From: Haliotis cracherodii
Lineage: Eukaryota
Direction of reading: 5' to 3'
Length of the DNA stretch: 64,000 bases
Assembly (NCBI RefSeq): GCF_022045235.1
Contig: NW_027266343.1
Location: 52,824,001-52,888,000 of the forward strand
Below the pieces are notes generated by a model that did no database searches, was not told where the DNA came from, and saw only the letters and a list, made by a program, of their open reading frames with translations. The stretch's first letter is position 1. Every line of letters starts with the position of its first letter. The position numbers were made by a program, and so were the translations under genes. Shown one piece after another: positions 1,400 to 41,934 of the stretch.

Positions 1400-4300
1400 G
1401 TCAACTGTGTCCCCAGTGACACGTTTTCCCCACGTCTGTTAGTCAACTGTGTCTTTAAATCTGTGTGATAAATTTTAGCAATTTCTATAAGTCAACTGTG
1501 TCTTGATTGAAACAAAACTGTCCATGTAAGTCAACTGCATGTGCCTTTATTGATACATTTTCTCAAATTTTATTAGTCAACTGTGTCTTCATTGATAGGT
1601 TTTCTCAAATTCTATTGGTAACTGTGTCTTCATTGATACGTTTTCTCAAATTCTATTGGTAACTGAGTCTTCATTGATCCATTTTCTCAAATTCTATTGG
1701 TAACTGTGTCTTCATTGATCCATTTTCTCAAATTCTATTAGTCAACTGTGTCTTCATTGATACGTTTTCTCAAATTCTATTAGTCAAATGTGTCTTCATT
1801 GATCCATTTTCTCAAATTCTATTTGTAACTGTGTCTTCATTGATAGGTTTTCTCAAATTCTATTGGTAACTGTGTCTTCATTGATCCATTTTCTCAAATT
1901 CTATTAGTCAACTGTGTCTTCATTGATACGTTTTCTCAAATTCTATTAGTCAAATGTGTCTTCATTGATCCATTTTCTCAAATTCTATTAGTAACTGTGT
2001 CTTCATTGATAGGTTTTCTCAAATTCTATTGGTAACTGTGTCTTCATTGATACGTTTTCTCAAATTCTATTGGAAACTGTGTCTTCATTGATCCATTTTC
2101 TCAAATTCTATTGGTAACTGTGTCTTCATTGATCCATTTTCTCAAATTCTATTGGTAACTGTGTCTTCATTGATCCATTTTCTCAAATTCTATTGGTAAC
2201 TGTGTCTTCATTGATCCATTTTCTCAAATTCTATTAGTAACTGTGTCTTCATTGATACGTTTTCTCAAATTCTATTAGTCAAATGTGTCTTCATTGATCC
2301 ATTTTCTCAAATTCTATTAGTAACTGTGTCTTCATTGATAGGTTTTCTCAAATTCTATTGGTAACTGTGTCTTCATTGATCCATTTTCTCAAATTCTATT
2401 GGTAACTGTGTCTTCATTGATACGTTTTCTCAAATTCTATTGGTAACTGTGTCTTCATTGATACGTTTTCTCAAATTCTATTGGTAACTGTGTCTTCATT
2501 GATACGTTTTCTCAAATTCTATTGGTAACTGTGTCTTCATTGATCCATTTTCTCAAATTCTATTGGTAACTGTGTCTTCATTGATCCATTTTCTCAAAAT
2601 CTATTGGTAACTGTGTCTTCATTGATCCATTTTCTCAAATTCTATTGGTAACTGTGTCTTCATTGATCCATTTTCTCAAATTCTATTAGTAACTGTGTCT
2701 TCATTGATACGTTTTCTCAAATTCTATTGGTAACTGTGTCTTCATTGATCCATTTTCTCAAATTCTATTGGTAACTGTGTCTTCATTGATCCATTTTCTC
2801 AAATTCTATTGGTAACTGTGTCTTCATTGATACGTTTTCTCGAATGCTATTGGTAACTGTGTCTTCATTGATACGTTTTCTCAAATTCTATTAGTAACTG
2901 TGTCTTCATTGATCCATTTTCTCAAATTCTATTGGAAACTGTGTCTTCATTGATCCATTTTCTCAAATTCTATTAGTAACTGTGTCTTCATTGATCCATT
3001 TTCTCAAATTCTATTGGTAACTGTGTCTTCATTGATCCATTTTCTCAAATTCTATTGGTAACTGTGTCTTCATTGATCCATTTTCTCAAATTCTATTGGT
3101 AACTGTGTCTTCATTGATCCATTTTCTCAAATTCTATTGGTAACTGTGTCTTCATTGATCCATTTTCTCAAATTCTATTGGTAACTGTGTCTTCATTGAT
3201 CCATTTTCTCAAATTCTATTGGTAACTGTGTCTTCATTGATACGTTTTCTCAGATTCTATTGGTAACTGTGTCTTCATTGATACATTTTCTCAAATTCTA
3301 TTAGTCAACTGTGTCTTCATTGATACGTTTCCTCAGATTCTATTGGTAACTGTGTCTTCATTGATACGTTTTCTCAAATTCTATTGGTAACTGTGTCTTC
3401 ATTGATACATTTTCTCAAATTCTATTAGTCAACTGTGTCTTCATTGATACGTTTTCTCAAATTCTATTAGTAACTGTGTCTTCATTGATACGTTTTCTCA
3501 AATTCTATAAGTAACTGTGTCTTCATTGATACGTTTTCTCAAATTTTATTGGTAACTGTGTCTTTATTGATACATTTTCTCAATTTCTATTAGTCAACTG
3601 TGTCTTCATTGAACGTTTTCTCAGATTCTGTTGGTAACTGTGTCTTCATTGATACGTTTTCTCAAATTCTATAAGTAACTGTGTCTTCATTGATACGTTT
3701 TCTCAGATTCTATTGGTAACTGTGTCTTCATTGATACGTTTTCTCAAATTCTATTGGTAACTGTGTCTTCATTGATACGTTTTCTCAAATTCTATAAGTA
3801 ACTGTGTCTTCATTGATACGTTTTCTCAAATTCTATTGGTAACTGTGTCTTCATTGATGCATTTTCTCAAATTCTATTAGTCAACTGTGTCTTCATTGAT
3901 ACGTTTTCTCAAATTCTATTGGTAACTGTGTCTTCATTGATGCATTTTCTCAAATTCTATTAGTCAACTGTGTCTTCATTGATACGTTTTCTCAAATTCT
4001 ATTGGTAACTGTGTCTTCATTGATCCATTTTCTCAAATTCTATTGGTAACTGTGTCTTCATTGATACGTTTTCTCAAATTCTATTAGTCAACTGTGTCTT
4101 CATTGATACGTTTTCTCAAATTCTATTGGTAACTGTGTCTTCATTGATACGTTTTCTCAAATTCTATTGGTAACTGTGTCTTCATTGATACGTTTTCTCA
4201 AATTTCTATTAGTCAACTGTGTCTTCATTGATACGTTTTCTCAAATTCTATTAGTAACTGTGTCTTCATTGACACATTTTCTCAAATTCTATTAGTAACT

Positions 4301-4412
4301 GTGTCTTCATTGACACATTTTCTCAAATTCTATCAGTCAAATGTGTCTTCATTGATCCATTTTCTCGATATCTATGAGTCAACTGTGTCTTCATTTATAC
4401 ATTTTCTCAAAT
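1400..4412. repeat. 41/42-bp minisatellite, about 70 copies
   Basis: Unit GTAACTGTGTCTTCATTGATCCATTTTCTCAAATTCTATTG, degenerate at both edges. Confidence 0.97.
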
Positions 4413-6664
4413 TGTTCATTTCTACGTTAGTTTCTAAAATGACACTTCCATATATTTTTATGTTAATGGGCTTTTTACACCCACGAGTTTCATATCGCCT
4501 AATAAAGATAGATAAAATTGATATTAGTCAGGAGTCAGTTAATATTTCACGACAGGAAACTGGTGCTGGCGTAATGAGATAACTCGCAGTATCAGCACTG
4601 CACTGTTATCCCAGTTTCAATATGTTGCATAATTGATATTGATATTGGGATTGATATTCAAACAATGGGAGTCGGGGAATCTCAAATAGTGGGCATTACA
4701 AATTTGCTTTAACAACAGATCGTGTATATATTTCACTGCATTATTTTTACCAGGTTTACATTGAGGAGTAGAACACGATCCGTTCAATATTTATACTATC
4801 TAACCAATAGCTTTGTATGCTATTGTATCTGATATGAAGGCAACTGTACCCGGTGATGCATAGCTGTACATGTTTACAGTCACGTCTCAACTACAACGAA
4901 AATTTACAGTTCTTTAGATATACCGACCACGCTAAAAGATTGAAATAAATGTAAAAACTGAAAATTCTCATTTGTGACGCTATACATCAGTAATCATGTA
5001 ATTATGCTCGCGGAGGGCTACCGTCGTGAAAACGTGTGCCCAATCCTTTTCCTTGGGAATAAAATATGTTTAAATCAAATACAGTCCCGTAAAAACGTGT
5101 ATACTGTCTGATAATTCCACAAATTAGGACTATTAAAGGTTTTTAACGAATTCTAGAATCTTTATTTTACTAGAATATGAGGTTTATATATCGACCTCCT
5201 ACACGGTTGTGTAATCTACAGGAAAACCACAACGTTGAGCATTTGAAAGTATGAGCACAGGGAAACTCTACTATATCCAGTTTAACAAGTTTGTTTGAAA
5301 TACAACCGAGCTGACGCCCTATTACATGGCTGCTTCACAAGTATTCCCAAGTGTGACTATCTATTTGATGGGTGTTTCCAGGTTAATGTATATACAGCTT
5401 GAATTACCCCTCTATACACGTTTCATCTGAAGGCGTACACACTCCCCAATGCGTGACGTATTGTGTGGGCTTTGACCAGACTAGTAATGCAATTGTACAT
5501 GTATTTAAGATGTATTTTCCATGGATGTCGCAATTCCCTATGCACTGACTCCCTTCAAGGCTTGTCAATCCGGAGCCTTCATCAATCAGACTACGAGAAT
5601 ACAGGATAACTGGAGTTGGCCCAGTTTCGTTGATATCATCCCAACGCCGGAAGGAAATTCATATGATGTATATAGTGCATGATAGCATTTCCCTGAGGAA
5701 AACGGTGCTTGAGGGAACTGGGTCGTGGACAAATAGCTAGGAACTTTAACACACATGGATACTCACATACGTTGTTTTAAGACTATCGTCAAAGTGAAAT
5801 ACAACATTATCAAATCAATTATATAGTAACCCGGAAACCGGTTTATTCGCAGGACGAACCCTACGAAGTCGTGCGATTTTTTCTCGAAATCAGTTGTGCA
5901 AGTGTCTTGCTTAATCCGGATTAAGAGGGGGTCGTCTCCAAAGCAAAGATCAAAATTTAATATTCACGGTTCACTAAGATCGATGTGTTCTTACAAAGTC
6001 GACCTGAGCGTATACATTGATGTACATCGAGGTTCATAAAAAAGCATTTGCTTGACTGGACCTCAGAGGTTGTGATATGCAGACACCAAAGGCTGGACCT
6101 TCTGGAATGTTGCTCAACATAAAGATTGACGTCAAGTGGAAGTCAACCTCTTGTTATACAGCCATGTGGAGTTTTTCATGCATACAATAAACTTGAAGGG
6201 CAATTCACATTGGACGAATCATTTCAAATGTAGTTAAAAAGAACAGTCAGATAAACTCATTCCAATCATTAAAATGATTTCTGAAGCTCAAAAGGAATTC
6301 CGAGCGGATTTGCTTGTCATTCAATTCGTGTCCCACGGCCAGCGATGACACCAGTATTGTATGTGTTGACAAAGGCGAACATATCGAAGTATTTGCGAAT
6401 TTTTCAATGTTTGAGATGGAGCATGTTTACAGCATGCTAATAACATTCAAAAGAATCATAACCGCGAATAAATGTGAAAGTTTGACTTCAAGTTTCGCAC
6501 GCATTTTCCTTGTGTTGTATACAATAGTGTAACATTTGAATGTGACCAGAAACCTTCGGAATATATCAAATACTGGCTGTCATGTTGTGATTCGGTCGCT
6601 TTACGATCCCGATGATCTCAATGACACCAATGAATATGCGTAATATAACCACCAACACTGCTCA

Positions 6665-7291
6665 CCAGAGTGAGTGTTTTGGGCCTAGTAGAGGAGAGTG
6701 ACCTGACCTGAGCCTGGAGTTAGTGTTTTGGGCCTGGTAGAGGAGAGTGACCTGAGCCTGGAGTGTGTGTTTTGGGCCTGGTAGAGGAGAGTGACCTGAG
6801 CCTGGAGTGTGTGTTTTGGGCCTGGTAGAGGAGAGTGACCTGAGCCAGGAGTGTGTGTCGTGGGCCTGGTAGAGGAGAGTGACCTGAGCCTGGAGTGAGT
6901 GTTTTGGGCCTAGTAGAGGAGACTGACCCGAGGCTGGAGTGTGTGTTTTGGGCCTAGTAGAAGACAATGACCTGAGCCTGGAGTGTGTGTTTTGGGCCTA
7001 GTAGTGGAGAGTGATCTGAGCCTGGAGTGTGTGTTTTGGGCCTAGTAGAGGAGAGTGATCTGAGCCTGGAGTGTGTGTTTTGGGCCTAGTAGAGGAGAGT
7101 GACCTGAGCATGGAGTGTGTGTTTTGGGCCTAGTAGAGGAGAGTGACCTGAGCATGGAGTATGTGTTTTGGGCCTGGTAGAGGAGACTGACCTGACCCGA
7201 GGCTGGAGTGTGTGTTTTGGGCCTAGTAGAGGAGAGTGACCCGAGGCTGGAGTGTGTGTTTTGGGCCTAATAGAGGAGAGTGACCTGAGCC
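6665..7291. repeat. 44-bp minisatellite, about 14 copies
   Basis: Unit CTGGAGTGTGTGTTTTGGGCCTAGTAGAGGAGAGTGACCTGAGC. Confidence 0.95.
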
Positions 7292-7552: not shown

Positions 7553-7714
7553 GCCTCAGAAAGTGAAGGGCTACGGTCAGCATCGACATTCACGGCAAGA
7601 CATCCCAGATTACAACCTGCAGTTTAACACAGAGCCTCGGAAATTAAAGGGCCACGGTCTGCATCGACATGCAGTGCAACACTTCCCACATTACAACCTG
7701 CAGTTTAACACAGA
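7553..7714. repeat. Diverged 81-bp dimer
   Basis: Two copies, each ending ATTACAACCTGCAGTTTAACACAGA. Confidence 0.8.
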
Positions 7715-7885: not shown

Positions 7886-9159
7886 TGCAGCACACTCTGA
7901 AATATGTAATAAAGATATACTATTTTCGATCATGAGAAGTAAAGAAATGGAAATTTTCAGTTCGCGGCAGCTAAGTCGACAAAAAGCGAAACTTAAGTCC
8001 TAGTTTCACAATCACCATGTCGTAATTAACCGATAACTGAGGCGTAGTAACCCTTTAACTGTGACGTTACGAGATACGTATGTCTCCATTCCCCGAAACG
8101 ATAACGATATTGTTGATATCCGATATCAGAGTCGCAATTACGTGACACAAGAACTACGTCGCAGAAACGATATATCTTCATTTTAAGTATATTAAAATAT
8201 GTAATTACTATTTCGTAAATACGCGATAGTAAAATCGCACTGACTTCCCTACGTAGGACGCATTTTAAATCTCTCAAACCTGTTCCATCATTTGACAACT
8301 AGTATCTAAGATATTTATATGAGAACTTCGTTGCTTTGATTGGTTATTAAACTGTATGGGTATATTTCAACCAGCATCATGCTACCTTTGCTAAAAAAAT
8401 GTTCAATCAAAGTTACAACATTCAAGGCCTCAGTATACCTTTCATACCACTTTTCCCAATTCGATGCATCGATGCCCAAAATGATGGCCAATTCAATTAC
8501 TTGATTTACTTGTATCATATGTTCCCGCTTTCGTTTTAGGTGAACAATTGAGTTGCCATTGCATGTGTTTGTGATGGGTTTCATCAGTCAAACACTGGTG
8601 CTAAATGCATCCCACAGATTAACTGAACCATTATACTAATAGTTTTCAACACAAAGCAAGCACAAGAAATTCTAAATAATAATTCTCATGACACACGCAC
8701 AAAGCAGAACACTGAACTATTAGGCAAGGAACAAAAGGGCGAACCAAACACAAGCTGTTATAACAATAATGTTTTAAAGACATTGAATCATTCAGCTTGC
8801 TAACAGTGTGAGAATCGACCGAAACGACCCTATATGCAATAAACCAGAAATTATGATCCATAAATTTGCACGTTTTCTTACTTAATCAACTTCTAGAAAG
8901 GCAATCCAACAGTAAATTGAATCATGTTACATTGACGTTCTTTAAGAAATTGCAAACAAAATTAGGAAGGTTTAAAAAAGCCAAGATCCACATGTACAGA
9001 GTAAAATGACAAGGAAAATGTTGAAACTGATACGTGACTGATATGCCATGGACTACACAACAACTAGTAACTTTTAGTAAGGTCAGTTTGAAAAAGAAAT
9101 TCAAAAGCAAATTTGGAAAATACACCCAGTTTACATCTGCCCAGGTAGAAAACTAAATC

Positions 9160-11790
9160 AACACTACTGCAAAATGAGTGCAATCCATCATGTTTGTTCT
9201 TGTGAAAAGTTGTTAATCACTTTGTCAAAGTCAATATCAAGATCTCTGTGGATATGAAGCAGTGCTAGTACATTAAGCCGCTCGGTTACCATTGTTGACC
9301 TGAGATATGATTTGACACGTCTCAATGCAGTAGCAGGAAATTCTGGCAATGTGACAAGTGTTTAGGTAACATGAATATTTGGATAAAGAAAATCTTTTGC
9401 AAATGTTGCGCATAGCCACGATTGTTTCTCCCGTGCAGGGACATCTTGTCAGCGTGCTTTCTAGCGCCTGATTTCAACAGTTTGTTGTTTTTCAAAACGG
9501 CCGTTGGGACAACTCAGCATTTGTGTCATTTGCGGGGACATATGACCAAGCACGATATAGTGACGATTTTCTTCAAGTACATTTCTGAAGTTGATCCAGT
9601 GGCATGGCCGCGCATCATTTGATGTCCTACTCACCTTGGCATAGTAGGATCAATGGCATATTCATTCGATAAATCGTAGACATCTTTGAATAGCTATTCC
9701 CCTACAGTGATGCCTTCACGTTATTGTCTCTAAGAACTGATGACAACTTTGGCCTCACTTGATGCTCGAATGAGATCAGTGGTTGCCGACTACAGCATGA
9801 GCGGTTACTGGACTGTGTATTCGATGACAACTTTGGCCTCACTTGATGCTCGAATGAGATCAGTGGTTGCCGACTACAGCATGAGCGGTTACTGGACTGT
9901 GTATTCGATGACAACTTTGGCCTCACTTGATGCTCGAATGAGATCAGTGGTTGCCGACTACAACATGAGCGGTTACTGGACTGTGTATTCGATGACAACT
10001 TTGGCCTCACTTGATGCTCGAATGAGATCAGTGGTTGCCGACTACAACATGAGCGGTGACTGGACTGTGTATTCGATGACAACTTTGGCCTCACTTGATG
10101 CTCGAATGAGATCAGTGGTTGCCGACTACAGCATGAGCGGTTACTGGACTGTGTATTCGATGACAACTTTGGCCTCACTTGATGCTCGAATGAGATCAGT
10201 GGTTGCTGACTACAACATGAGCCGTTACTGGACTGTGTATTCGATGACAACTTTGGCCTCACTTGATGCCCGAATGAGATCAGTGGTTGCCGACTACAGC
10301 ATGAGCGGTTACTGGACTGTGTATTCGATGACAACTTTGGCCTCACTTGATGCTCGAATGAGATCAGTGGTTGCCGACTACAGCATGAGCGGTTACTGGA
10401 CTGTGTATTCGATGACAACTTTGGCCTCACTTGATGCTCGAATGAGATCAGTGGTTGCCGACTACAGCATGAGCGGTTACTGGACTGTGTATTCGATGAC
10501 AACTTTGGCCTCACTTGATGCTCGAATGAGATCAGTGGTTGCCGACTACAGCATGAGCGGTTACTGGACTGTGTATTCGATGACAACTTTGGCCTCACTT
10601 GATGCTCGAATGAGATCAGTGGTTGCCGACTACAGCATGAGCGGTTACTGGACTGTGTATTCGATGACAACTTTGGCCTCACTTGATGCTCGAATGAGAT
10701 CAGTGGTTGCCGACTACAGCATGAGCGGTTACTGGACTGTGTATTCGATGACAACTTTGGCCTCACTTGATGCTCGAATGAGATCAGTGGTTGCCGACTA
10801 CAGCATGAGCGGTTACTGGACTGTGTATTCGATGACAACTTTGGCCTCACTTGATGCTCGAATGAGATCAGTGGTTGCCGACTACAGCATGAGCGGTTAC
10901 TGGACTGTGTATTCGATGACAACTTTGGCCTCACTTGATGCTCGAATGTGATCAGTGGTTGCCGACTACAGCATGAGCGGTTACTGGACTGTGTATTCGA
11001 TGACAACTTTGGCCTCACTTGATGCTCGAATGTGATCAGTGGTTGCCGACTACAGCATGAGCGGTTACTGGACTGTGTATTCGATGACAACTTTGGCCTC
11101 ACTTGATGCTCGAATGAGATCAGTGGTTGCCGACTACAGCATGAGCGGTTACTGGACTGTGTATTCGATGACAACTTTGGCCTCACTTGATGCTCGAATG
11201 AGATCAGTGGTTGCCGACTACAGCATGGGCGGTTACTGGACTGTGTATTCGATGACAACTTTGGCCTCACTTGATGCCCGAATGAGATCAGTAGTTGCCG
11301 ACTACAGCATGAGCGGTTACTGGACTGTGTATTCGATGACAACTTTGGCCTCACTTGATGCTCGAATGAGATCAGTGGTTGCCGACTACAGCATGGGCGG
11401 TTACTGGACTGTGTATTCGATGACAACTTTGGCCTCACTTGATGCTCGAATGAGATCAGTGGTTGCCGACTACAGCATGAGCCGTTACTGGACTGTGTAT
11501 TCGATGATGTGCTGAGTAACAACAAGGTGTATGGTGAAATCCAATGATTGAATGATCATCTATATACGCCACCATCCTGTTTTACGGTCGTAAGAATATG
11601 AACGAATATGAACAACTTGCCCAGCGTGTTTCACAAATTTTAATTATCTTTCGTCAGGCATGTTCATTCGGTTCCGATTCTTCATTGAAAGCCACGAGGC
11701 GTGTTACGGAATATGAAAAGGCACAAGCAATGTATTCAACAGCTGACATGATCATGAGACGTACAAATCGTCAGGATACTGACGTCCACT
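9160..11790 (-). pseudogene. Degenerate hAT-superfamily transposase, interrupted by a minisatellite
   Basis: Minus-strand translation gives ...KIIKICETRWAS (~11600-11650, hAT CxTRW motif), DFTIHLVVTQHIIEYTVQ*RLML*SATTDLIRASSEAKVVI (~11420-11545) and the dimerisation domain ALRRVKSYLRSTMVTERLNVLALLHIHRDLDIDFDKVINNF (~9205-9330); stops and frameshifts present. Confidence 0.88.
9740..11503. repeat. 84-bp minisatellite, 21 near-identical copies
   Basis: Unit ATGACAACTTTGGCCTCACTTGATGCTCGAATGAGATCAGTGGTTGCCGACTACAGCATGAGCGGTTACTGGACTGTGTATTCG; 21 x 84 = 1764 bp. Confidence 0.98.
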
Positions 11791-13894
11791 AATAACCTGA
11801 ATACCGGTCAAGTGATCACTCTTTTTTGAGACACCATCATAACCCTGACCCTTATGAAGTCTTTGTTAGCACCGTATTTGTCTAATCCGAACACAAAAAC
11901 GGGTGCCCAGAAGCTGCCTCAATGTTCAAATATGCTGTAAACTACTCAGTTACACAAGTCCTACATGGACCCTTCAACCAACCATAAAAAATCCTAGGTT
12001 GAAATTTGGTCGCAATGATATCAAAATGGGGTTATAGATGTCAGAGCCGGGCGCAGTTATGACTTAGCATTGAACTCTGGGTAGGAGAGTGAGATCCATC
12101 CGTGACAGAAGCTTCGCAGAACGTTTACTTCAAATTGTGTTTAAATCATAGGGAAGTGTGTTTTTAACCTTGCTTTGGTTTCAAAGTTCCAATGCGTGTG
12201 CGCAACTAAAGACAAAAACAAGACATTGTGTTTCTGCTGTAGGAAGGACATTGATATTGGTACGTTTGGGAAAAGTGCACTAAAGTCTCAAAGACAAAGC
12301 AGTCGTCACCAGAAAAAAACTGACAGTCATTGTTGGGATTAAATTGAACCCCGTATAAACCATTTGTAAACAAGTGTGTAACACTTCTATATACACAGGG
12401 CGATTGCATAAAATCAGTTAGTCCCCGACGCAATATGCGTTTCGGCTATACACCAAGAAATGGAAACATTTAATTACATTATGTATTATATTTCAGTTTT
12501 AACATTGCTTTTTGATTTCCTTTATTGGTGTGTGGGACATTCAAATTTCAAAGTGAAAACACTTGCTCTACTTGCCACGCTGTACGCCAATGAACATGGC
12601 TAGGTTATTGTCGATAACAGTAGGTACTATCTTGGAAGAGACTTGACCATATAGTCTTGTCTTTTTAAGTTGTTTGTAAGTTGTTTGTCAGTTGTTTGTC
12701 AGGCACATTTCCATCCCATGTACAACTGGGGCAGTGTCAAAATATATGTCGTCACATTATTGGAACTAGATACTGAGAATGTCGTAATGGCTCGGAATAT
12801 AATCGGAATCGTACAATCGACTCTGCCTTTTAGCAGAGATTTGTTATGAATACGGAAAGCTTTTTGTCGATATTAAAATCTATATACACAGATGGTACAT
12901 GTAGTAATGATTGAGGGCGAATGTGGCGACAAGGGGGAACACTTCACGATAAAGGTTTAATCGCTTGTATTCTGAAATCACTAAGGATAATGGTGGCCCA
13001 AAATGGACGTGGAAACGATTTCGACATGTATTGAGTTATTTGAGTATTACCGGTATACGTTTTCATTCGAACTATATTATACATCTTTCAGAAAAGGAAA
13101 TTGAAAATGGCACGAAAACCATGAATATTGCCAAAACATTCTGTCAAATAAACATGAAACACAGAAAAGCCATTTAAGCCCCGAAATCATATGAGAAACA
13201 CGAAAAATAAATTTCAAACATTAAATATAAAGGAAAAACATCAACTGCTATTTTAACAGTGTTGGAGGTTTTCGGTTTAATGTGTATTTTGAGTTTATTC
13301 TATGTTTCTGATTTGAGTATATAGAGAAGCTCAATCGAGTGTCTTTAGATATCTAATATATCAACACGAGTTGATAAAAGTGGAAAAACTCAGAGACTTG
13401 CCGTCACAATGGTCTGCAAAGCATCGTGATGCTTGATATCACCCAAGGGATATCACCTACGGGAGCCAGTTTTGGATGATACACAACGTTTAGTGTGTTC
13501 GTGTTTGGTTGTCAAGAGATTTCAAGATCTAATCAAATGTTTTCTATTTGTTTTTTGTTTGACTTTACGTACTTTTAAGACACATAGTTCTGTTTTAATT
13601 TTCAGTAGTTTTGTAGATGAGTATATGTCTAATCATTTGCTGAAGCGTATTAAATAAAAACTTGTAGAATTCCAAAAGAAAACGAGTAATACACTTTTTT
13701 ATATAAGAAGGACACTGACTGCGAAAATGTTTCAATGTCTTGTTAAACCACCGTATTTGCTTCACAACCGCCTATAATACAAGATGTAGGGTACACAATT
13801 CTTATTAAACAAAGTTTACAGGACATCGCATGACAAAGGTATGGTCACAACTGTCACAGCCATTACAATGATAACAAGTCTGCTATAGAGCCAG

Positions 13895-15937: not shown

Positions 15938-16444
15938 GTACCTTTAAGATCATACCGTATTTAAGACAACACTTAACAAAATTCATCGATACCTTTAAGA
16001 TCATACCGTATTTAAGACAACACTTAACAAACATCGTCGATACCTTTAAGACCATACCGTATTTAAGACAACAATTAACAAACATCATCGATACCTTTAA
16101 GACCATATCGTATTTAAGACAACACTTAACAAACATCATCGATACCTTTAAGCCATACCTTATTTAAGACAACACTTAACAAACATCGTCGATACCTTTA
16201 AGACCATACCGTATTTAAGACAACACTTAACAAACATCGTCGATACCTTTAAGACCATATCGTATTTAAGACAACACTTAACAAACATCGTCGATACCTT
16301 TAGGACCATATCGTATTTAAGACAACACTTAACAAACATCATCGATACCTTTAAGACAATACCGTATTTAAGACAACACTTAACAAACATCATCGATACC
16401 TTTAGGACCATACTGCATTTAAGACAACACTTAACAAACATCGA
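15938..16444. repeat. 51-bp minisatellite, about 10 copies
   Basis: Unit GATACCTTTAAGACCATACCGTATTTAAGACAACACTTAACAAACATCGTC. Confidence 0.95.
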
Positions 16445-18104: not shown

Positions 18105-18175
18105 CGAGGTGTTACAGTGAGGCTTAACACTCTTGTGAACTGAATGGGAATCAATTCACTTACTGAATTCGCAAA

Positions 18176-18897
18176 ATGACAGCTGTTATGGCAAGACCGT
18201 GTGGTCTCCGTTCGAGTTATGCTTTAACACCGACCAGCAGTCCCGACAGAAGCGACTGTCTTGATGACGACTGCCACACAATGACAAAGCAAGCCATAAT
18301 GAAATCAGAGGTAAAGAGACTAAACTCATTCAAACTCTGGCCAGCGTGGGCGACCCAAAACCCTGCAATTTTAGCCCAAGCTGGATTCTATTACACAGGA
18401 ACAGGTGATCGAGTAGAGTGTCCCTTTTGTTTTGGTATTTTAAAACAATGGCACACAAATGATGTTCCTTTATTAGAACATATGAAGCATTTTCCTTACT
18501 GTAACTTCATCCAGGGGGGTGATGATGGTAACATACCTATAGCAGAAAGTGTACAGAACTCACCTGTTTCTCGTAGATCTGCCCAAACCCAAGGGGTTGA
18601 AGGCGGCTGTGACTATACACGAGAGGAATTGAGACTAAAATCATTTTCAAGATGGCCGCGAAATGTGTCTCAAACCCCGGAAGCCCTTGCACGAGCAGGG
18701 TTCTACCATATACCATGCGAAGAGAAGCCAGACCGTGTGAAGTGTGGTTATTGTCGAGGGAAAGTATACAACTGGGCCTGTGGAGACGACCCCTGGATTG
18801 AGCATGCAAAGTGTTTCCCGACTTGTCCCTATATAAAGCTGTGTATTGGGGAAGATGTCATCAATGATCTACTGTGCCAACAGAACGGTGTCACAAG
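18176..18897 (+). CDS. Inhibitor of apoptosis protein 1, coding exon 1 (two BIR domains)
   Basis: RLNSFKLWP...AGFYYTG...VECPFC...EHMKHFPYC and RLKSFSRWP...VKCGYC...EHAKCFPTC with Cx2C-H-C zinc ligands; donor AG|GTAGGT, phase 2. Confidence 0.95.
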
Positions 18898-19210
18898 GTA
18901 GGTTGATATATAACAATACTCACAGCTTATTTTCCTGTATTTCTAGATTTGGCACCATCCTAAACGTGCACGTGGGTTTCACCAGGGTAGTACGCGTCTA
19001 AGACTTTCTCCACCCATATCACAATGACACTGATACTGATTAAAACGGCGTTTAATCCAACTCACTCACACTCACTATTTCCAACATTGTTCAACACACA
19101 TATATGTCGAACTCGAAACAGTAATGGAAACTTTTCCTGCTGAGAGTGGAATCATACCTTGATGCTTGTTCGAACCCTGAGTACACCCCTGCCAACGAAC
19201 GATGTAAATA

Positions 19211-19374
19211 GTGAGTGAGTATTGTTTTACGCCGTTTTTAACAATATTCCAGCAATATCACGGCGGGGGACATCGGAAAATGGGCTTCACTCATTGAACC
19301 CATTTGGGGAATCGAACTCGGGTCTTCGGCGTGACGAGCCAACGCTTAAACTACTAGGCTTCCCCACCTCCCTG
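19211..19374 (-). mobile_element. SINE family 1 in the IAP-1 intron
   Basis: tRNA-like head and ACTC tail; target-site duplication (TSD) CGATGTAAATA at 19200-19210 and 19375-19385. Confidence 0.9.
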
Positions 19375-19618
19375 CGATGTAAATAAAACTTGCATGTTTG
19401 CAGTCACGATGTAAATATTATGAAGGGTGATGACGTCAACATATGTATCTGTTTTCCCTCGCGTCCATGGCCCTGAATACGTGTATGACTGCATGTATAA
19501 ATGACACATTATATAGTTTAAATATTTGTAATGGTGTGGTAAACATATGTTGATCCAAAATAAAGACTGGATTAAGACTTTTCACGCAACTATATTTTAA
19601 ATGTGTAAATATTTTCAG

Positions 19619-20192
19619 CCAAGAAAATGCGGAAGGAGTCGTGATATCAAACTCTTCTGACGAGGTTAATTCAACCGTTGACGAAGTAACACAACTCATG
19701 ATGAGTGATGCTGTTCAGGCCGTTCTCAAGATGGGATTTACGTCAGATCTCGTAAGAACTGTTGTACACAAGTGGCACACAGAACGATGTTGTGATTCAG
19801 TTTCCGCACAAGAGCTCGCCATTGCTGTTCTTGAAATAGGAGAAGGAACAGGAATTACAACAAATAACGTAAATGACACCAGAAGTTCAACGCCAAACAG
19901 ACGTGAATTACGCCATGAAGACATCAACAGACATTCATCATCTAACAGGGGCCAGATTTCAAGTCAAACACTATCGGATATGACACAAAATGTTGACCTC
20001 ATGAGAACGGTTCAAGACGAGAATGTTCACATGAGAGAGCGGTATCTGTGTAAAGTCTGTATGGAGAATCAGCTGAGGGTGACGTTCATGCCATGTGGTC
20101 ACCTGGCGTGTTGTGGTCCCTGCTCTATGGCCATGTCCGACTGTCCGATCTGCCGGACGCCCATTACAGGGTGTGTCAGGAGCTACTTTTAG
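19619..20192 (+). CDS. Inhibitor of apoptosis protein 1, coding exon 2 (UBA-like + RING); spliced product 431 aa
   Basis: Acceptor TTTTCAG, phase-compatible with exon 1; AVLKMGF UBA-like motif; RING CKVC...PCGHLACCGPC...CPICR; ends VRSYF*. Confidence 0.95.
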
Positions 20193-22194: not shown

Positions 22195-23856
22195 TCAGAT
22201 GGATAATTCACTGGAAGGGAGTTGGTAAGTAAGACATAGAGGAGAATCAGTAATAGTATTATGACAATGGGTTGGCTGAATTTAAAGAAACTGGTTTCAC
22301 ATTCTTTCACACGAACCTAATATACCTCGCGATAACGGGTAATGCTTACTTTACACTACGGGACATGAAACAATGGTACATCATCTAGATTCATTCGCTC
22401 CGGGGGTAATAGCACGTTACTAGAAGCTATTTAATTATTTCCTGATTAATTAAATTAGTCTTTCTCTAATTATACCAATAGTCTCTCTAAACGTTATTGG
22501 GTGCAGTTACTTCCCTTTATACGGTGAGCAGACAACATAAGACGGAAACACATCAACGTCAGCTCATTTCATCGTTCATTGATTAAAAAGCATACCATTG
22601 TATAGAGATTTGCAGGTCAGACACAGCTTCGATTTTAATTTGCAAAACCGAGGAACAGATTTCGTTAAGCGCGACTTCGGGTACATATGATCTGTTAGAT
22701 CAAGGAAGTAAACGGGTATTGTGTATTCCCACCTCAGCGTAATAGGGCCTCTTCTATCCTCGATTATACGTTTTCGTCATGAAACTAAAAAAATGAATTC
22801 GGTCACATATATATTCAGTATGCATTCCAACCGCCATGACTGTCTATACGTAATACTAGACTACGTCATATATGGAAGTATAAGCCTTACCATATGTTCA
22901 AATTTTGTTTTTTGTCACTGAGATCATTAGAATTCTTGTAAATATTCAAAGTTTGAAGACGTACGTGTATGTATGATGTTATTGATCAAAACAACGTGCA
23001 TTAAAAATGGCAATATTTATACTGTGTTGACATATTTCAAATAAATTTAAATGTTTGAAATTTAATTTGGTTTTCTTTGACGGATAAATGGGTCCATTGC
23101 TTAGCTTTGGAAAAGGATATCTATTATATGGAGACTATTCCAAATGTGCTTTACACTCCAAGAGCATTGGAACACTGTTAATTTGAGCAGTTGCCGGCAT
23201 GTAACAAATGATGTAACAGTTAGGGTGAGACGTGGAATGCGAAGATATTATATGTGGACGGACTGCACCGGTGTGTTTCACAATCATTACGTCACATACC
23301 CATGGTGTACATTCATTGACACGACACGTTGACACGTTGGACTATCACTAGGTCACATTGACGATGTATAGGTAGATCTACAACCAGCACGTGTCTCATG
23401 AAGGTTTCCAAGTATCAACTATCAACTGACATCGGTACGAGACTATCAATATAACAGTCCACTACTTCACCAGAATTAAGCATACATACATGGACATGAA
23501 GGTTCATTCATATATGCTATAAATAGCGACATGAAGCCGAGCGATCTGTCTGCAACAGACAATCGCTATTTGTATGTTATCGCTGAAACGGATTATCAAA
23601 GTGATATTGTGGGTGTTTTTACGGTGCTATTTCTTTGACAAAAACACACGATCTTGAAGTAATTACGAATAGTGTATCAAGAGCTGGTATTTTGTAATAA
23701 ATAACGGAAACTCCAGTGTGACGTCGATCGTCTATTTATAGCATTGGGTAAACACGCTTTAACCTCGCCTATATAGGCAGTCGATTGAGTGAAATGCTCA
23801 ATCAGCTACAGGGTGTGCGGTTACAAGTATCACTATATAGCATTTACTAAGCAAAG

Positions 23857-24572
23857 ATGACTGCTATGATTTCAAGGCCTTGTGAAATCCATCAAGGGTA
23901 TATATATGATCCTGCTTGTACCTTACACCATATAAGCTATCTTAATGAAGCCTCCCGAGCAATGGCGGAGGCATCTCGCATGGAATCAGAAATAAATAGA
24001 CTAAACTCGTTCAAATACTGGCCAACATGGGCAACCCAGAGTCCAGCTAGTTTGGCTAAAGCTGGATTGTATTACACAGGAAGAGAGGACAGGGTTGAGT
24101 GCCCCTTTTGTTTTGGTGTTTTAAAAAAATGGCAGGCTGGTGATAGTCCTCTACAAGAACATAGGACGCATTTTCCTTATTGTAACTTCATCCAGGGGAA
24201 TGATGTTGGTAACATACCCATAGAAGAAAAAGTCCAGACCTGGCCATCTGTTCCACACGCAACTCCAGAAGCTGCCCAGACTACAGGCTCCTGTGACTAT
24301 ACACGAGAGGCCAACAGGTTAAAATCATTTTCAAGATGGCCGCGAAATATGTCTCAAACCCCGGAAGCCCTTGCACGAGCAGGGTTCTACCATATACCAT
24401 GCGAGGAGAAGCCAGACCGTGTGAAGTGTGCCTATTGTCGAGGGAAAGTATACAACTGGGCCTGTGGAGACGACCCCTGGATTGAGCATGCAAAGTGTTT
24501 CCCGACTTGCCCCTATATAAAGCTGTGCAAAGGGAACGATACCGATGACCTTCAGCGCCACCCACACAAGAG
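23857..24572 (+). CDS. Inhibitor of apoptosis protein 2, coding exon 1 (two BIR domains)
   Basis: Two intact BIR domains; donor AG|GTATGT, phase 2, same position as in IAP-1; TATATAGG ~85 bp upstream. Confidence 0.95.
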
Positions 24573-24751
24573 GTATGTTGATATATATCAAATTATATGC
24601 ATGATTTATTACAAACATCGATATCTTAATCATGTATTTGCTATTGTTTTTGTAAATATACATAATTCTGTAAAAATATTAAATATTAATATTAATTGGA
24701 AATGTTAGATCTGATATTTTGTAATATAATATATATTTTGTATATTTTCAG

Positions 24752-25319
24752 TACTGGGAACAAGACGGAAACTATGTTTAAATTACATTCTTCTGAATCG
24801 GAAGTTGACGAAGTTACACAACTCATGATGAGTGATGCTGTTCAGGCCGTTCTCCAGATGGGATTTACGTCAGACCTCGTGAGAACTGTTGTACACAAGT
24901 GGCACACAGAACGATGTTGTGATTCAGTTTCCGCACAAGAGCTCGCCATTGCTGTTCTAGCAATAGGAGAAGAAACAGGAATTACAACAAATAACGTAAA
25001 TGACACCAGAAGTTCAACGCCAAACAGACGTGAATTACGCCATGAAGACATCAACAGACATTCATCATCTGACAGGGGCCAGATTTCAAGTCAAACACTA
25101 TCGGATATGACACAAAATGTTGGCCTCGTGAAAACGGTTCAAGACGAGAATGTTCACATGAGAGAGCGGTATCTGTGTAAAGTCTGTATGGAGAATCAGC
25201 TGAGGGTGACGTTCCTGCCATGTGGTCACCTGGCGTGTTGTGGTCCCTGCTCTATGGCCATGTCCGACTGTCCGATCTGCCGGACGCCCATTACAGGGTG
25301 TGTCAGGAGCTACTTCTAG
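24752..25319 (+). CDS. Inhibitor of apoptosis protein 2, coding exon 2 (UBA-like + RING); spliced product 427 aa
   Basis: Acceptor TTTTCAG in compatible phase; 179-bp intron; intact RING. Confidence 0.95.
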
Positions 25320-30539: not shown

Positions 30540-32430
30540 TAGCTTCATATGATACCCCTGGGTACCTTTTCAAATGGCATACGTATTAATTATTACCATT
30601 ACCTAATTACTCTAATCTTTGCCAAAATATGTAAGGGATATCGATATCGTCCACTTTCTCCATACACCATTAAACTTGGGGTTCAAGGTTTGACACCAAG
30701 GAATCGCTTACATGCACCGAGGTGTGATTTCTCCTCTGAATCATATAGTTCCATACCCCAAATCTCGGCTCCATTTGGTAAAATTTAACTTAATTTTGTA
30801 TCGAATATTTAAAATTTGGTAAACAAAACTACCCTAAGTGGATTCCAATATTAAAATCTTTTTTCCTTTCATTGCAGCAGTAATTGCATGCAAAGTCCAC
30901 GACAGCCTGTTTGTAAACTACACACCTAGAAATTATGTGATGATACACATTCTATTTCATTTCCTTGGTAATATCATTTTTCTCTCTTAGATACAGTGCC
31001 ACATTTCTTGAAAACTATAGTTTTGGTTTTAATTGAGGTTTACCGGCAAACCCCATTTTTGACAATAATTTTCCAATTCATTAATTTGTTTTTGTAGACC
31101 AGGTATTGTGCTTGAAAGCATTACTATATCATCGGCAAATAGAAGGAGAAATATCTTTACTATTTCGGGGTGAAGCTGGATGCCATTATTTCAATTTATT
31201 TGGATTTGTTGTGCTAATTCATTAATAAAGAATGAAAATAGAAAAGGACTCAACATGCATCCTTGTTTCACACCAACGTTACTTTCAAACGTATCAGATA
31301 TAGTACCATTATATCGCACACAAACCTTTACACTATGACCCATATTGCACAACAACTTACCAATTTTACTACTAAGACCATGTGATTTGAAAAGATACCA
31401 TAATTTGTTTCTGTAAAGAGTCAAACGCCTTGGAGAAGTCGACAAAACGTACATAGAATTTTCCACCTTTCTTTGTCAGATAACTTTGTATCATTGACTC
31501 TGACATTAAATAAACTATCAATTGTAGAGCACCCTCTTCTAAAACCTGACTGAGCGTCATCAATTTTCTGAAAAGTCTTAGCCCAAAATACTATTCTTTT
31601 ATTTATGATATCAGTAAATATTTTACTAAAAATGCTTGATAAAACAATACCTCTATAATTGTTTATGTCATTCAAAGAACCTTGTTTGTGAAGTGGGATA
31701 ATGATTTTCTTCGGGAAATGATGTTTCAAGCATAATGTTAAATATAAGGGCCATGCATGAAATATGAATATCAGTAGACTTTTTAAAGAATTCTCCCATA
31801 GCGTTATCATATCCAGATGACTTTCTATTCTTAAGATGGTTAATACCCTCCTGTCGAGTACCTTTCGTGATGTTACATAATCATCATTATCTAATTCTGC
31901 TTGTTGCAAATTCAAAATATTTTTCTTTTTCTCCTTCTGGTGCAGAAAAAAGTTCTTTTAAATGCTCACACCAATCCTTAATATTTATATTATTTTATTT
32001 GTGCCGTTTTTTCCGAGGACCTTTAATTGTTGCCCAAAATGCTTTCGAATCGTGAATATTTTGTCCCAACAGGTCGGCTTATTTTCATAATACTCTGATT
32101 TCTTACGTCTACACATTTCATTATATTGATTACGAACACGATGATAGTTTTCTAGTGAGGCCAAATCTTTCTTTCTCCTAAATGTATTTAAACATCTTCA
32201 TATTTCTCTAGTTAAAGATTCACAGTCGATATCATACCGTGGCTCTATGTAGTTAATATTGCACGACCTTTTCTTCATATTCTCAGCAGCTCTGCATAAA
32301 GCTTTAGTAATGTATTGCACACCATCATTAATACTAGAAAATGCTGCATTTACTTCTTTTTTAGATAAGTCTACTATATCATCTGATGATAATTTCCCTG
32401 TGAAGTCTTGACATCGCTCGTTTCCATACA
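30540..32430 (-). mobile_element. Decayed LINE ORF2, reverse-transcriptase region (CR1/L2/RTE-X group)
   Basis: IPLHKQG...NNYRGI...QSGFRRGCSTID, FVDFSKAFDS, GVKQGCMLSPFLF and LLFADD (~31125-31148); many frameshifts. Confidence 0.9.
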
Positions 32431-35538: not shown

Positions 35539-37074
35539 TACTGAACCGCAAAAGAAACGTCACCATGAATAGATATGTGAGAAACCTTATTTGTTCAAAC
35601 ACTGTAAACATACTTTGAGACATATTAAAAATATGAAACTTGGCAAAACTGATCATCAAGCTTGACATTAAAGTGTCAAATGTTCTTAAAGTGAAACACG
35701 ACACTAGTGGCTGAGTAAATGGCATCAGAAGTCAGTATCTCGTGTGTCCGTCATGTGCATTGATGACTGCCGTGCAACGTCGATACATGGAATGGATGAG
35801 GCGGTTGATGAAGGCCATAGGCACTTGAGCCCACATTCTGGGGAACGCCTGACGCAGTTCAGCTGCAGCTGTCGGCCTTGGTCGGACATCATTCAGCCGT
35901 CTTTCAATCTCGCCCCACAGGTGCTCAGTGGGATTTAAATCGGGACTGAGGGCAGCCCACTGCATGGTTCTGATGCCATTCTGCTGGAGGAAGTCTCTTG
36001 TTGCTCTCGCAGTGTGGGCACGGGCGCTATCATGCTGGAACTCGTGGTTGCGGCGACGTGCCAAATGAGGTATGGCGTGTGGTCTCAAGACTTGATCAAT
36101 GTTGTTGTGACACCATTGCCTCTCCCTGGAACGATGTTCTGGAAGACCACAGGGCCGACCCTCTGTGCAACACCAATTCCACCCCACACCATGATGCTCG
36201 GACCACCCCACGAGTCTCTCAACAACACAAGCATCCGAATAACGTTTCCCACGGCGTCGCCAGACTCTCTCTCTGCCATCTGCTGTTTAGATACCATTAC
36301 GGCTCTCGTCTGAGAAGAGGACTCTTCTCCACTGCAGGTGGCGCCAATGCTGGTGCTGTGTTGCCCACTGAAGACGGTCCCGGCGATGGCGTGGTGTCAG
36401 AATGGATCCTCGGTGTGGCCTGTGACTGTGGAGGTGTCTGTTCGTCAATCGTCGACGCACGGTGTCAGCACTAATGTGTCGCAGGTGTGTCCTCATGGTC
36501 TGTCCAGCAGTTTCCGCAGCAGTAACAAAGCGTTGTTGAAGATGCTGTCGCACAATCTGACGATCCTGACGTCTGGTGGTGACCCTTGGTCTTCCACTAC
36601 GTGATCGGTCATCTGTAGTGTTGGTGGTCTGGTACCATTGCTGAAGCCTGAATATGGTCCTTACGTGGACTTGAAATGCATTGGCTACTTGCCGGGCGGT
36701 TTGTCCAGCTTGCAATCGTCCAAGGGCTTGGTGTCGCTGATTTCTTGTCAGTCTTGGCATGTGGTAGCAATTCAATAACGAATGAATGTTATCCGACCGA
36801 TCTGGGTGTATTTTTATAGGGCAAGAAATGGGGGAACGCATGCGCATTTCAATTTGCACGGAACTCACGTGCATCGAGTTACCACGGTCATTGCCGTGAT
36901 GCGTTTGGGCGATCGGTTTCATTGTCATATGCTTTGTTTTTTCATTATCAAATTTCCCTTTTCCGGACAAGGTAATGTAAAATTTTAGAAACTTTGACAA
37001 AAACTACCCAGATATTTAAATGACAACCTTTTATGCAATGTACAAGGGGTTGACGTTTCTTTTGCTGTTCAGTA
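35539..37074 (-). mobile_element. Full-length Tc1-family DNA transposon (~1.54 kb)
   Basis: TIRs TACTGAAC(C/A)GCAAAAGAAACGTCA at both ends (1 mismatch in 24), flanked by TA. Confidence 0.93.
35732..36760 (-). pseudogene. Tc1 DD34E transposase pseudogene
   Basis: MPRLT..., GRPRVTT, VLFSDESR, WGGI, FQHDSARAH and SPDLNPTEHLW (34 residues between the second D and E), split over several frames. Confidence 0.92.
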
Positions 37075-41136: not shown

Positions 41137-41640
41137 CTGTCACGTAGAAGCCGTTTCAACATCGTAGATTGTGATTAATGATCATCACAAGTCCATACAT
41201 ATCGAAAAGCATCACCGATGCTGTGAGATATCAAACAGTATTCACTCACTCTCGAAAACTCTAACTGGTAATGAAAGCGTTTCACGTTGCATGTGGTGAG
41301 GGGGAAAAAAAACCCCAAAACCACAACTAATATCATATGAATAGTTCGGAATACTGATAACAGCTTCATTCTTTGATTAAAATTATGTTTCGAAAACAAC
41401 TATTGCTTTAGAGAAATGCCAAAATATGGTCATAAACAATAAATAAGTTGGAAATATATTTCTAGACATAAATGAATTTGGACAATGCAGTTATTATTTA
41501 TATGTTACAGGCCATGGGACATACAGTTTTGCGCACTGGCCAAAGGTTACTATTTTTCGTTTTGACTTTTGACCGATCTCGAACATAGAAACAAAAGTAA
41601 GCTGAAAATACGTATGCTAGAATTCGACATAAGTACTGAC

Positions 41641-41791
41641 CAGGATGACCTGTGGGCGGCCAGACTGGCACAGTTCCAGCGCTCCATGTACACTGAGGGT
41701 CACCAAGCTCCTGGCCATTGGTAAATCCGTCGTTGTCAGAGTCCTTTTGACACAGAGCTACAGTCCACGTATGCGATGCAGCCTGGAAATC
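41641..41791 (-). CDS. Temptin-like gene A, exon 2
   Basis: TTTTCCCCAG|DFQAASHTWTVALCQKDSDNDGFTNGQELGDPQCTWSAGTVPVWPPTGHPG|GTCAGT; temptin-type DSDxDGxTNGxELGDPxCxW...HPG motif. Confidence 0.9.
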
Positions 41792-41934
41792 CTGGGGAAA
41801 ATACCAACGTTTACAAGTTACTGGTGACATATGATTTTAACATAGTTTCAGTATTATTCTAGCAACATAGCGACGAGTGACGCCAGGAACGGACATGGCA
41901 TTTTGGATAATACCTACAATTCAACTCTGGAAAG

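Follow-up and report, generated by a model that had tools for sequence, protein, structure and literature searches.

A minisatellite in a dead hAT transposase, probably seeded by one duplication between 5-bp direct repeats

The 84-bp tandem array at positions 9739-11507 of the window (the whole stretch of DNA analysed, 64,000 nucleotides, C80:52824001-52888000) is most probably a single-locus minisatellite that arose in an already-dead hAT transposase fossil by one duplication between 5-bp direct repeats, grew later and is likely to be functionless (we put this reading at roughly 0.86). The single-unit orthologous state was seen directly in related species, which is new here, and the transposase lesions present in it place the decay of the element before the duplication.

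Structure of the array and its transposase source

The array and the parts of the element around it are, from left to right:

9035..9175, minus strand: 3' non-coding remnant, also present in paralogue L018 (9035-9152 matched at 70% identity, E 5e-6)
9176..9487, minus strand: hAT C-terminal region with the dimerisation domain, stops inside (profile 660-772, E 1.5e-18)
9556..9738, minus strand: transposase continuing in frame right after the unit (as far as profile position 604)
9739..9743, plus strand: GATGA 5-bp direct repeat, left copy, start of unit 1 (sequence comparison)
9739..11502, no strand: minisatellite of 21 complete 84-bp units, of nine types and with eight variant sites
11503..11507, plus strand: GATGA 5-bp direct repeat, right copy, the array overhang (sequence comparison)
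11508..11562, minus strand: transposase leading in frame straight into the unit (profile position 495 onwards)
11600..11752, minus strand: transposase piece with the CETRW motif, other frame (profile 410-462, E 1.3e-4)
11725..11886, minus strand: GQGYDG-motif part of the transposase (profile 345-398, E 5.9e-6), matched at the DNA level by paralogues L017, L019 and L023
12050..12345, no strand: separate dispersed repeat, roughly 300 bp long, with about 20 other occurrences (73-97%) and probably an insertion into the fossil
12365..12468, minus strand: 5' element remnant shared with paralogues L016 and L017 (72%, E 1e-6 to 9e-9)

TRF gave 21.1 copies with 98% matches and zero indels, and the span of 1769 bp is exactly 21 head-to-tail units plus a 5-base overhang, GATGA. 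With 21 units of 84 bp the array falls among minisatellites (units of about 10-100 bp in arrays of 0.5 to several kb), and it is confined to one locus, since every one of the at least 22 matches to a junction query genome-wide lay at 9739-11507 between unique flanks. The units differ on average by 0.8% from their consensus and by 1.5% pairwise, with zero to three changes per unit and a total of 14 differences from the consensus at eight sites over the 21 units compared. This bears out the original prediction of a young, near-homogeneous 21-copy array, as does the presence of GATGA at 9739-9743 and 11503-11507, exactly at the unit junction. Beyond these five bases, the flanks on both sides have no match to the unit. 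Variants common to non-adjacent units (7/19, 18/20, 6/21 and 3/4/6) point to exchange between units.

The translation given for the unit on the minus strand, EYTVQ*PLML*SATTDLIRASSEAKVVI, was reproduced, and its frame is continuous with the unique upstream text DFTIHLVVTQHII on the same strand. By profile match the array lies, as had been proposed, between the hAT TRW motif (11752-11600) and the dimerisation region (9487-9176). The claim that the two stops of the unit are common to all units holds for the second (21/21); the first is present in 20 of the 21 units, unit 4 having Ser.

The transposase profile was made from the 33 proteins of at least 630 aa among 150 listed matches, obtained with the ORF of paralogue L017 as query (which retrieved 3454 relatives with E values up to 0.001). 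Five of six long relatives scanned from this set carry both DUF4371 and Dimer_Tnp_hAT (Pfam). When the array was collapsed to one unit, the window matched the hAT profile in four ordered pieces (E 1e-4 to 1e-18), of which that covering profile positions 495-604 runs across the unit with no gap inside it and one 1-residue gap after it (E 1.2e-14); in tblastn, a single piece extends across the unit for six of the 33 profile proteins. The check proposed for a hAT origin, alignment of the collapsed array with transposases, thus gave a match that is continuous through the unit. Two outcomes had been named beforehand as fatal to that origin, a broken alignment and a dispersed satellite; both were looked for and neither was found, for the satellite within the reach of the junction query. 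On sequence grounds, the source of the array is a hAT transposase fossil.

Like transposases with DUF4371 and Dimer_Tnp_hAT, the copy here has the GQGYDG, TRW and C-terminal YLRSTM...RL..LALLHIH motifs in order; unlike them, it has stops, frameshifts and deletions, its N-terminal half is gone and no ends were found. The source family is presumably the P52rIPK/THAP12-like or Tip-like group. In the profile search, positions 1-344 had no match in the fossil. An intact DDE triad and an open frame are absent, and the many stops, frame changes and deletions mark it as a fossil and not an active hAT member. The ERSFS stretch, which we take to be a conserved motif of the hAT C-terminal region, is deleted, and the Pfam Dimer_Tnp_hAT model alone scored under cut-off on 9176-9487 (E 0.075). 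The dispersed repeat at 12050-12345 had no hAT profile match. Inverted matches between 8300-9200 and 11900-13500 reached 11-12 bp at best and had no matching 8-bp flanks; the ends of the element are likely to be eroded or to lie outside the range searched.

Old paralogues of the fossil were found by DNA search of the genome (1.18 Gb) with both flanks. As the original prediction anticipated, they hold the unit once: this is so at 67-80% in L016, L017 and L019, and in part in L018. The ORF of L017 scores above the DUF4371 cut-off (Pfam). Paralogues have sense codons at both positions of the unit stops, and none of the three informative ones matches the 5-bp repeat exactly on both sides of the unit (upstream they have TCATT, TCAGT or GCATT). 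Judged from these alignments, the 5-bp repeat is a property of this fossil copy and not of the hAT family. Searches with two paralogue pieces, which give lower bounds, returned no intact copy of the family among their best matches, all of these being broken or partial, and a weak search among longer proteins with a paralogue piece scored none of 176 candidates. In L019 (C23), some 500 bp from the 3' part of its transposase recur at 5845-6385, and in L020 (C45) a 30-bp × 21 array (3731-4372) lies about 230 bp upstream of a hAT dimerisation-region fragment, with no hAT profile match under the array.

Single-unit alleles and the order of events

Sequencing runs were compared for eight of 21 runs, those with a small share (X8, X10-X12 and X14-X16) being left out. 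Raw reads of X18, sampled at about 1 in 100, included none from the left query region. The single-unit orthologous allele was found in all three related-species runs examined (X7, X9 and X13, from organisms B, D and C, respectively). With positions 8900-9860 as query, each yielded a single contig (2.1-2.2 kb) in which the left flank and the unit, to 9827, are followed by right-flank letters. With positions 11375-11800, a 2116-bp X9 contig covers 11419-11800 gap-free and runs leftwards into left-flank letters. X9 differs from the window by 4.6% (37/810) over the left query and 3.4% (13/382) over the right, and the related-species alleles as a whole are about 4-5% diverged from the window. All three align through the GATGA-equivalent bases to 9827. 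In X9, GATGA is intact at both unit ends: its 13 right-side differences comprise nine that are listed and four near the piece end, none of them in the repeat, and on the left the allele aligns from 9739 with, by count, no difference remaining to be assigned to GATGA. Because organisms B, C and D have most of their differences from the window in common, they are likely to amount to one outgroup comparison.

At least six stops in the profile-matched frames (11754, 11656, 11562, 9792, 9732 and 9190) are common to the window and X9, as are the two frame changes to the right of the array. Three further stops (9463, 9451 and 9364) were excluded from this count as lying near piece ends or indels. Stops, frameshifts and the GATGA pair are therefore older than the species split, and since both the lesions and the direct repeat pre-date it, the element died first and the repeat is older than the array. 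That the transposase decayed before the duplication had been predicted, and the lesions already present in the single-unit X9 allele give it direct support. Because the paralogues lack the exact repeat at both sites, its fifth base would have arisen in this copy during decay.

Decay continued in the window's lineage. Stops 9807 (the unit stop that unit 4 lacks), 9723 and 9696 are younger than the split from the species of X9; stop 9633 is absent in X9 and X13, and no difference is listed there for X7. Near 9487, about 100 bp were lost in the window's lineage only; a loss common to the relatives was ruled out by the roughly 100 extra bases that all three keep there. Changes at unit positions 11, 12 and 69 are derived in the window's lineage, with the paralogues as reference. 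As all 21 units carry them, the present array would be younger than these changes, although homogenisation could hide a greater age.

Unit-unit junction contigs were recovered from two other individuals, X4 and X5, one of them from another study. In X5 the unit contig has a depth of 1432 and the flank 16-25; in X4 the depths are 52-70 and 4-10. Contig depth is no copy number, and these values only hint at very roughly 35-65 (X5) and 6-10 (X4) units per haplotype, compared with 21 here, and at some five-fold variation between individuals; copy number may still vary. At 11600-11775 both individuals hold a second haplotype, 3-8% off the window, which is either a deep allele or a local duplicate; that of X5 has 39 other letters between 11595 and 11601.

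Reading frames and genomic setting

Two long frames run through the array:

9740..10951, plus strand: 403-aa ATG ORF, antisense to the transposase, judged a chance product
9702..11555, minus strand: 617-aa stop-to-stop frame with no ATG, judged a chance product

The original prediction gave ORFs of 403 and 607 aa. The former stands, and is ended by a TGA variant in unit 15 that recurs in unit 16; the latter is a frame of 617 aa from stop to stop with no Met, and a length of 607 aa needs a TTG start. At least two open frames were found in 43% of shuffled units, 44% of 84-mers from the window and 32% of 84-mers from the fossil, so that the array ORFs are at chance level. In the plus frame the unit variants comprise three silent, four changing and one stop, and in the minus frame one silent and seven changing; of the 252 possible changes, 57 are silent. 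No sign of purifying selection was seen in the eight unit variants, whose pattern is as random, at low power. On the basis of these eight variants the array appears neutral. The suggestion that the ORFs could be raw material for a de novo gene therefore finds no favour: two open frames are at chance level, the longer one lacks an ATG and the variant pattern is neutral.

In X17, guessed to be RNA, one 114-bp contig (depth 4.1) crosses a unit-unit junction, the sole hint of transcription, and the right flank has no cover in that run. Exact-match comparison with the collection searched found none of the three array ORFs. Pfam matches of the ORFs to Galaxin_repeat (54 bits) and BRE4 (40 bits) were rejected, being summed weak matches over 14-21 off-frame transposase repeats; for BRE4, no single stretch scored above cut-off. 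Both chance ORFs nevertheless pass these Pfam cut-offs and could be mis-annotated.

Minisatellite arrays are common in this genome: sixteen 10-kb stretches (160 kb) taken at round-number positions held 14 arrays with a period of at least 25 and at least three copies, occupying 8.4 of the 160 kb, or about one array per 11 kb of the sample. A further minisatellite, in L022 (C34; 4480-5150, 60 bp × 11.2, 94% alike), has an 11-12 bp imperfect end repeat and adjoins what by eye appears to be a WD40 exon. An origin in the hAT family of the present array was considered for it and rejected, as it comes from a different repeat: it grew from the dispersed repeat also present at 12050-12345, with a single-copy homologue at about 12040-12107 of the window. 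Other arrays in the window are at 1540-4413 (41 bp × 70), 6668-7291 (44 bp × 14), 7553-7714 (81 bp × 2) and 15939-16442 (51 bp × 10); the 51-bp unit of the last also keeps a frame open.

The window also contains IAP genes clustered in tandem (two BIR domains, UBA-like, RING) on the plus strand at 18167-20192 and 23851-25319. A further IAP-like gene, read from an ORF translation, lies just before the window (L038), and the hAT fossil is thus situated between two IAP genes. On the minus strand are an exon matching Temptin_C (41501-41836, E 1.4e-20) and, by eye, two adjoining ORFs of a Tc1/mariner-like transposase split by a stop (35732-37003), similar pieces of which occur in L018 and L021, and a LINE reverse transcriptase-like fragment (31421-31957).

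Seeding of the array, rival explanations and significance

In the sequence of events proposed here, a hAT transposase copy would have died and accumulated stops and frameshifts, and continuing decay would have completed the second GATGA, leaving a 5-bp direct repeat at both ends of the future unit. One duplication between these two pre-existing repeats would then, in all likelihood, have started the array, which probably expanded as its units underwent slippage, unequal exchange or gene conversion with one another. The GATGA repeat would have guided the first duplication, for which slippage, microhomology-mediated repair and unequal exchange would all give the same product. The original prediction of a microhomology-mediated origin is upheld in that the 5-bp repeat pre-exists at both ends; the repair route it specified is one of several with the same outcome.

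The 5-bp overhang exceeds chance, as junction homology of at least 5 bp occurs in just 0.64% of random 30-150 bp duplications in the fossil (P = 0.0064, for one post hoc case). It is improbable, then, that the first duplication had breakpoints without homology, or that the array ends were trimmed later, with the overhang a coincidence. Coincidence draws on the post hoc nature of this single case, on the 117 direct-repeat pairs of at least 5 bp spaced 30-150 bp apart within the 1061 bp of the collapsed fossil, and on the mixed overhangs of the other sampled arrays (0-49 bases, with rough boundaries). Against it, the single-unit allele has GATGA exactly at both unit ends, and the array of L022 likewise has a repeat, if imperfect, at its ends. 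Given 117 comparable pairs, the GATGA repeat permits a duplication without predicting why the site at 9739-11507 was the one that expanded. We regard as somewhat less probable again an array that predates the species split, with homogenisation here and, in the ancestor of B, C and D, a collapse that left a single unit. These three look like one clade, recombination between end units would leave a single unit with GATGA on both sides, and turnover hides the true age of an array; such a history, however, requires two extra events, all paralogues are single-unit, three lineage-specific changes are in 21/21 units, and the units lie far closer to their consensus (0.8%) than the species do to each other (about 4-5%).

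A functional array, or one becoming so, is very unlikely. Here a species-specific hypervariable array of perhaps 8-60 units would be transcribed and yield a length-variable protein of 28-residue repeats from the antisense ATG frame on the plus strand, or would tune the neighbouring IAP genes. The 403-aa ATG ORF, the X17 junction contig (its RNA status being a guess) and the position between IAP genes are compatible with this; the chance-level frames, the minus frame without an ATG and the ratio of silent to changing variants in both frames speak against it, and a multi-copy unit would be the first to assemble from trace DNA. If it were true, the locus would show a gene or regulatory element being newly born while sister species still have the non-genic ancestor intact. 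Least probable of all, and in substance already refuted, is the view that the array was misassembled, or that a dispersed satellite inserted itself into the fossil. Short-read contigs are unable to size the array; junction contigs nevertheless occur in both X4 and X5, the units carry structured variants, the junction query matched this locus only (22 matches, a lower bound) and the unit is native transposase sequence. Seeding of a minisatellite by one duplication in an already-dead element thus remains much the most probable account.

A non-contiguous-repeat model of minisatellite origin was reportedly proposed by Taylor and Breden (Genetics, 2000). In the model of Haber and Louis (Genomics, 1998), as presented in the sections consulted of later papers, the first copies arise by slippage or unequal crossing-over at flanking repeats of 5-10 bp (PMC6947457, PMC2820488) and later growth is by slippage, conversion or unequal exchange (PMC6947457). 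Both features of this model were found here, a direct repeat of 5-10 bp at both unit ends and its presence in the single-unit allele. As far as those sections go, the mechanism at this locus is identical to that of the two models; what differs is that the pre-duplication state was seen directly in related species and that an 84-bp unit is at the long end. Minisatellites derived from transposable elements are known, among them Alu-derived ones (Jurka and Gentles 2006, as cited) and 7276 in human (PMC3389668, PMC9659126, in the sections consulted). In those sections, too, a piece of a dead element between short direct repeats becomes an array and outgroups have fewer units; compared with the Alu- or LTR-derived cases described there, the source here is the coding region of a hAT DNA transposase, in an invertebrate. 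No hAT-transposase-derived minisatellite was described in the titles and abstracts of the literature searched, which was covered in part. The seeding mechanism is well supported at this locus and has long been known; the locus fits the model of Haber and Louis point for point and is not a new system.

The locus is a clean before-and-after example, revealing no new mechanism or function, and an unusually complete record of the birth of a minisatellite, in which paralogues, a single-unit orthologue and the expanded allele can all be seen, along with the order of mutations, and in which the seeding repeat would have been completed by the ordinary decay of a fossil. The array may serve as a species-specific, highly variable marker. 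The same comparison, made genome-wide with close sister genomes, would give the frequency with which minisatellites are seeded by short direct repeats.
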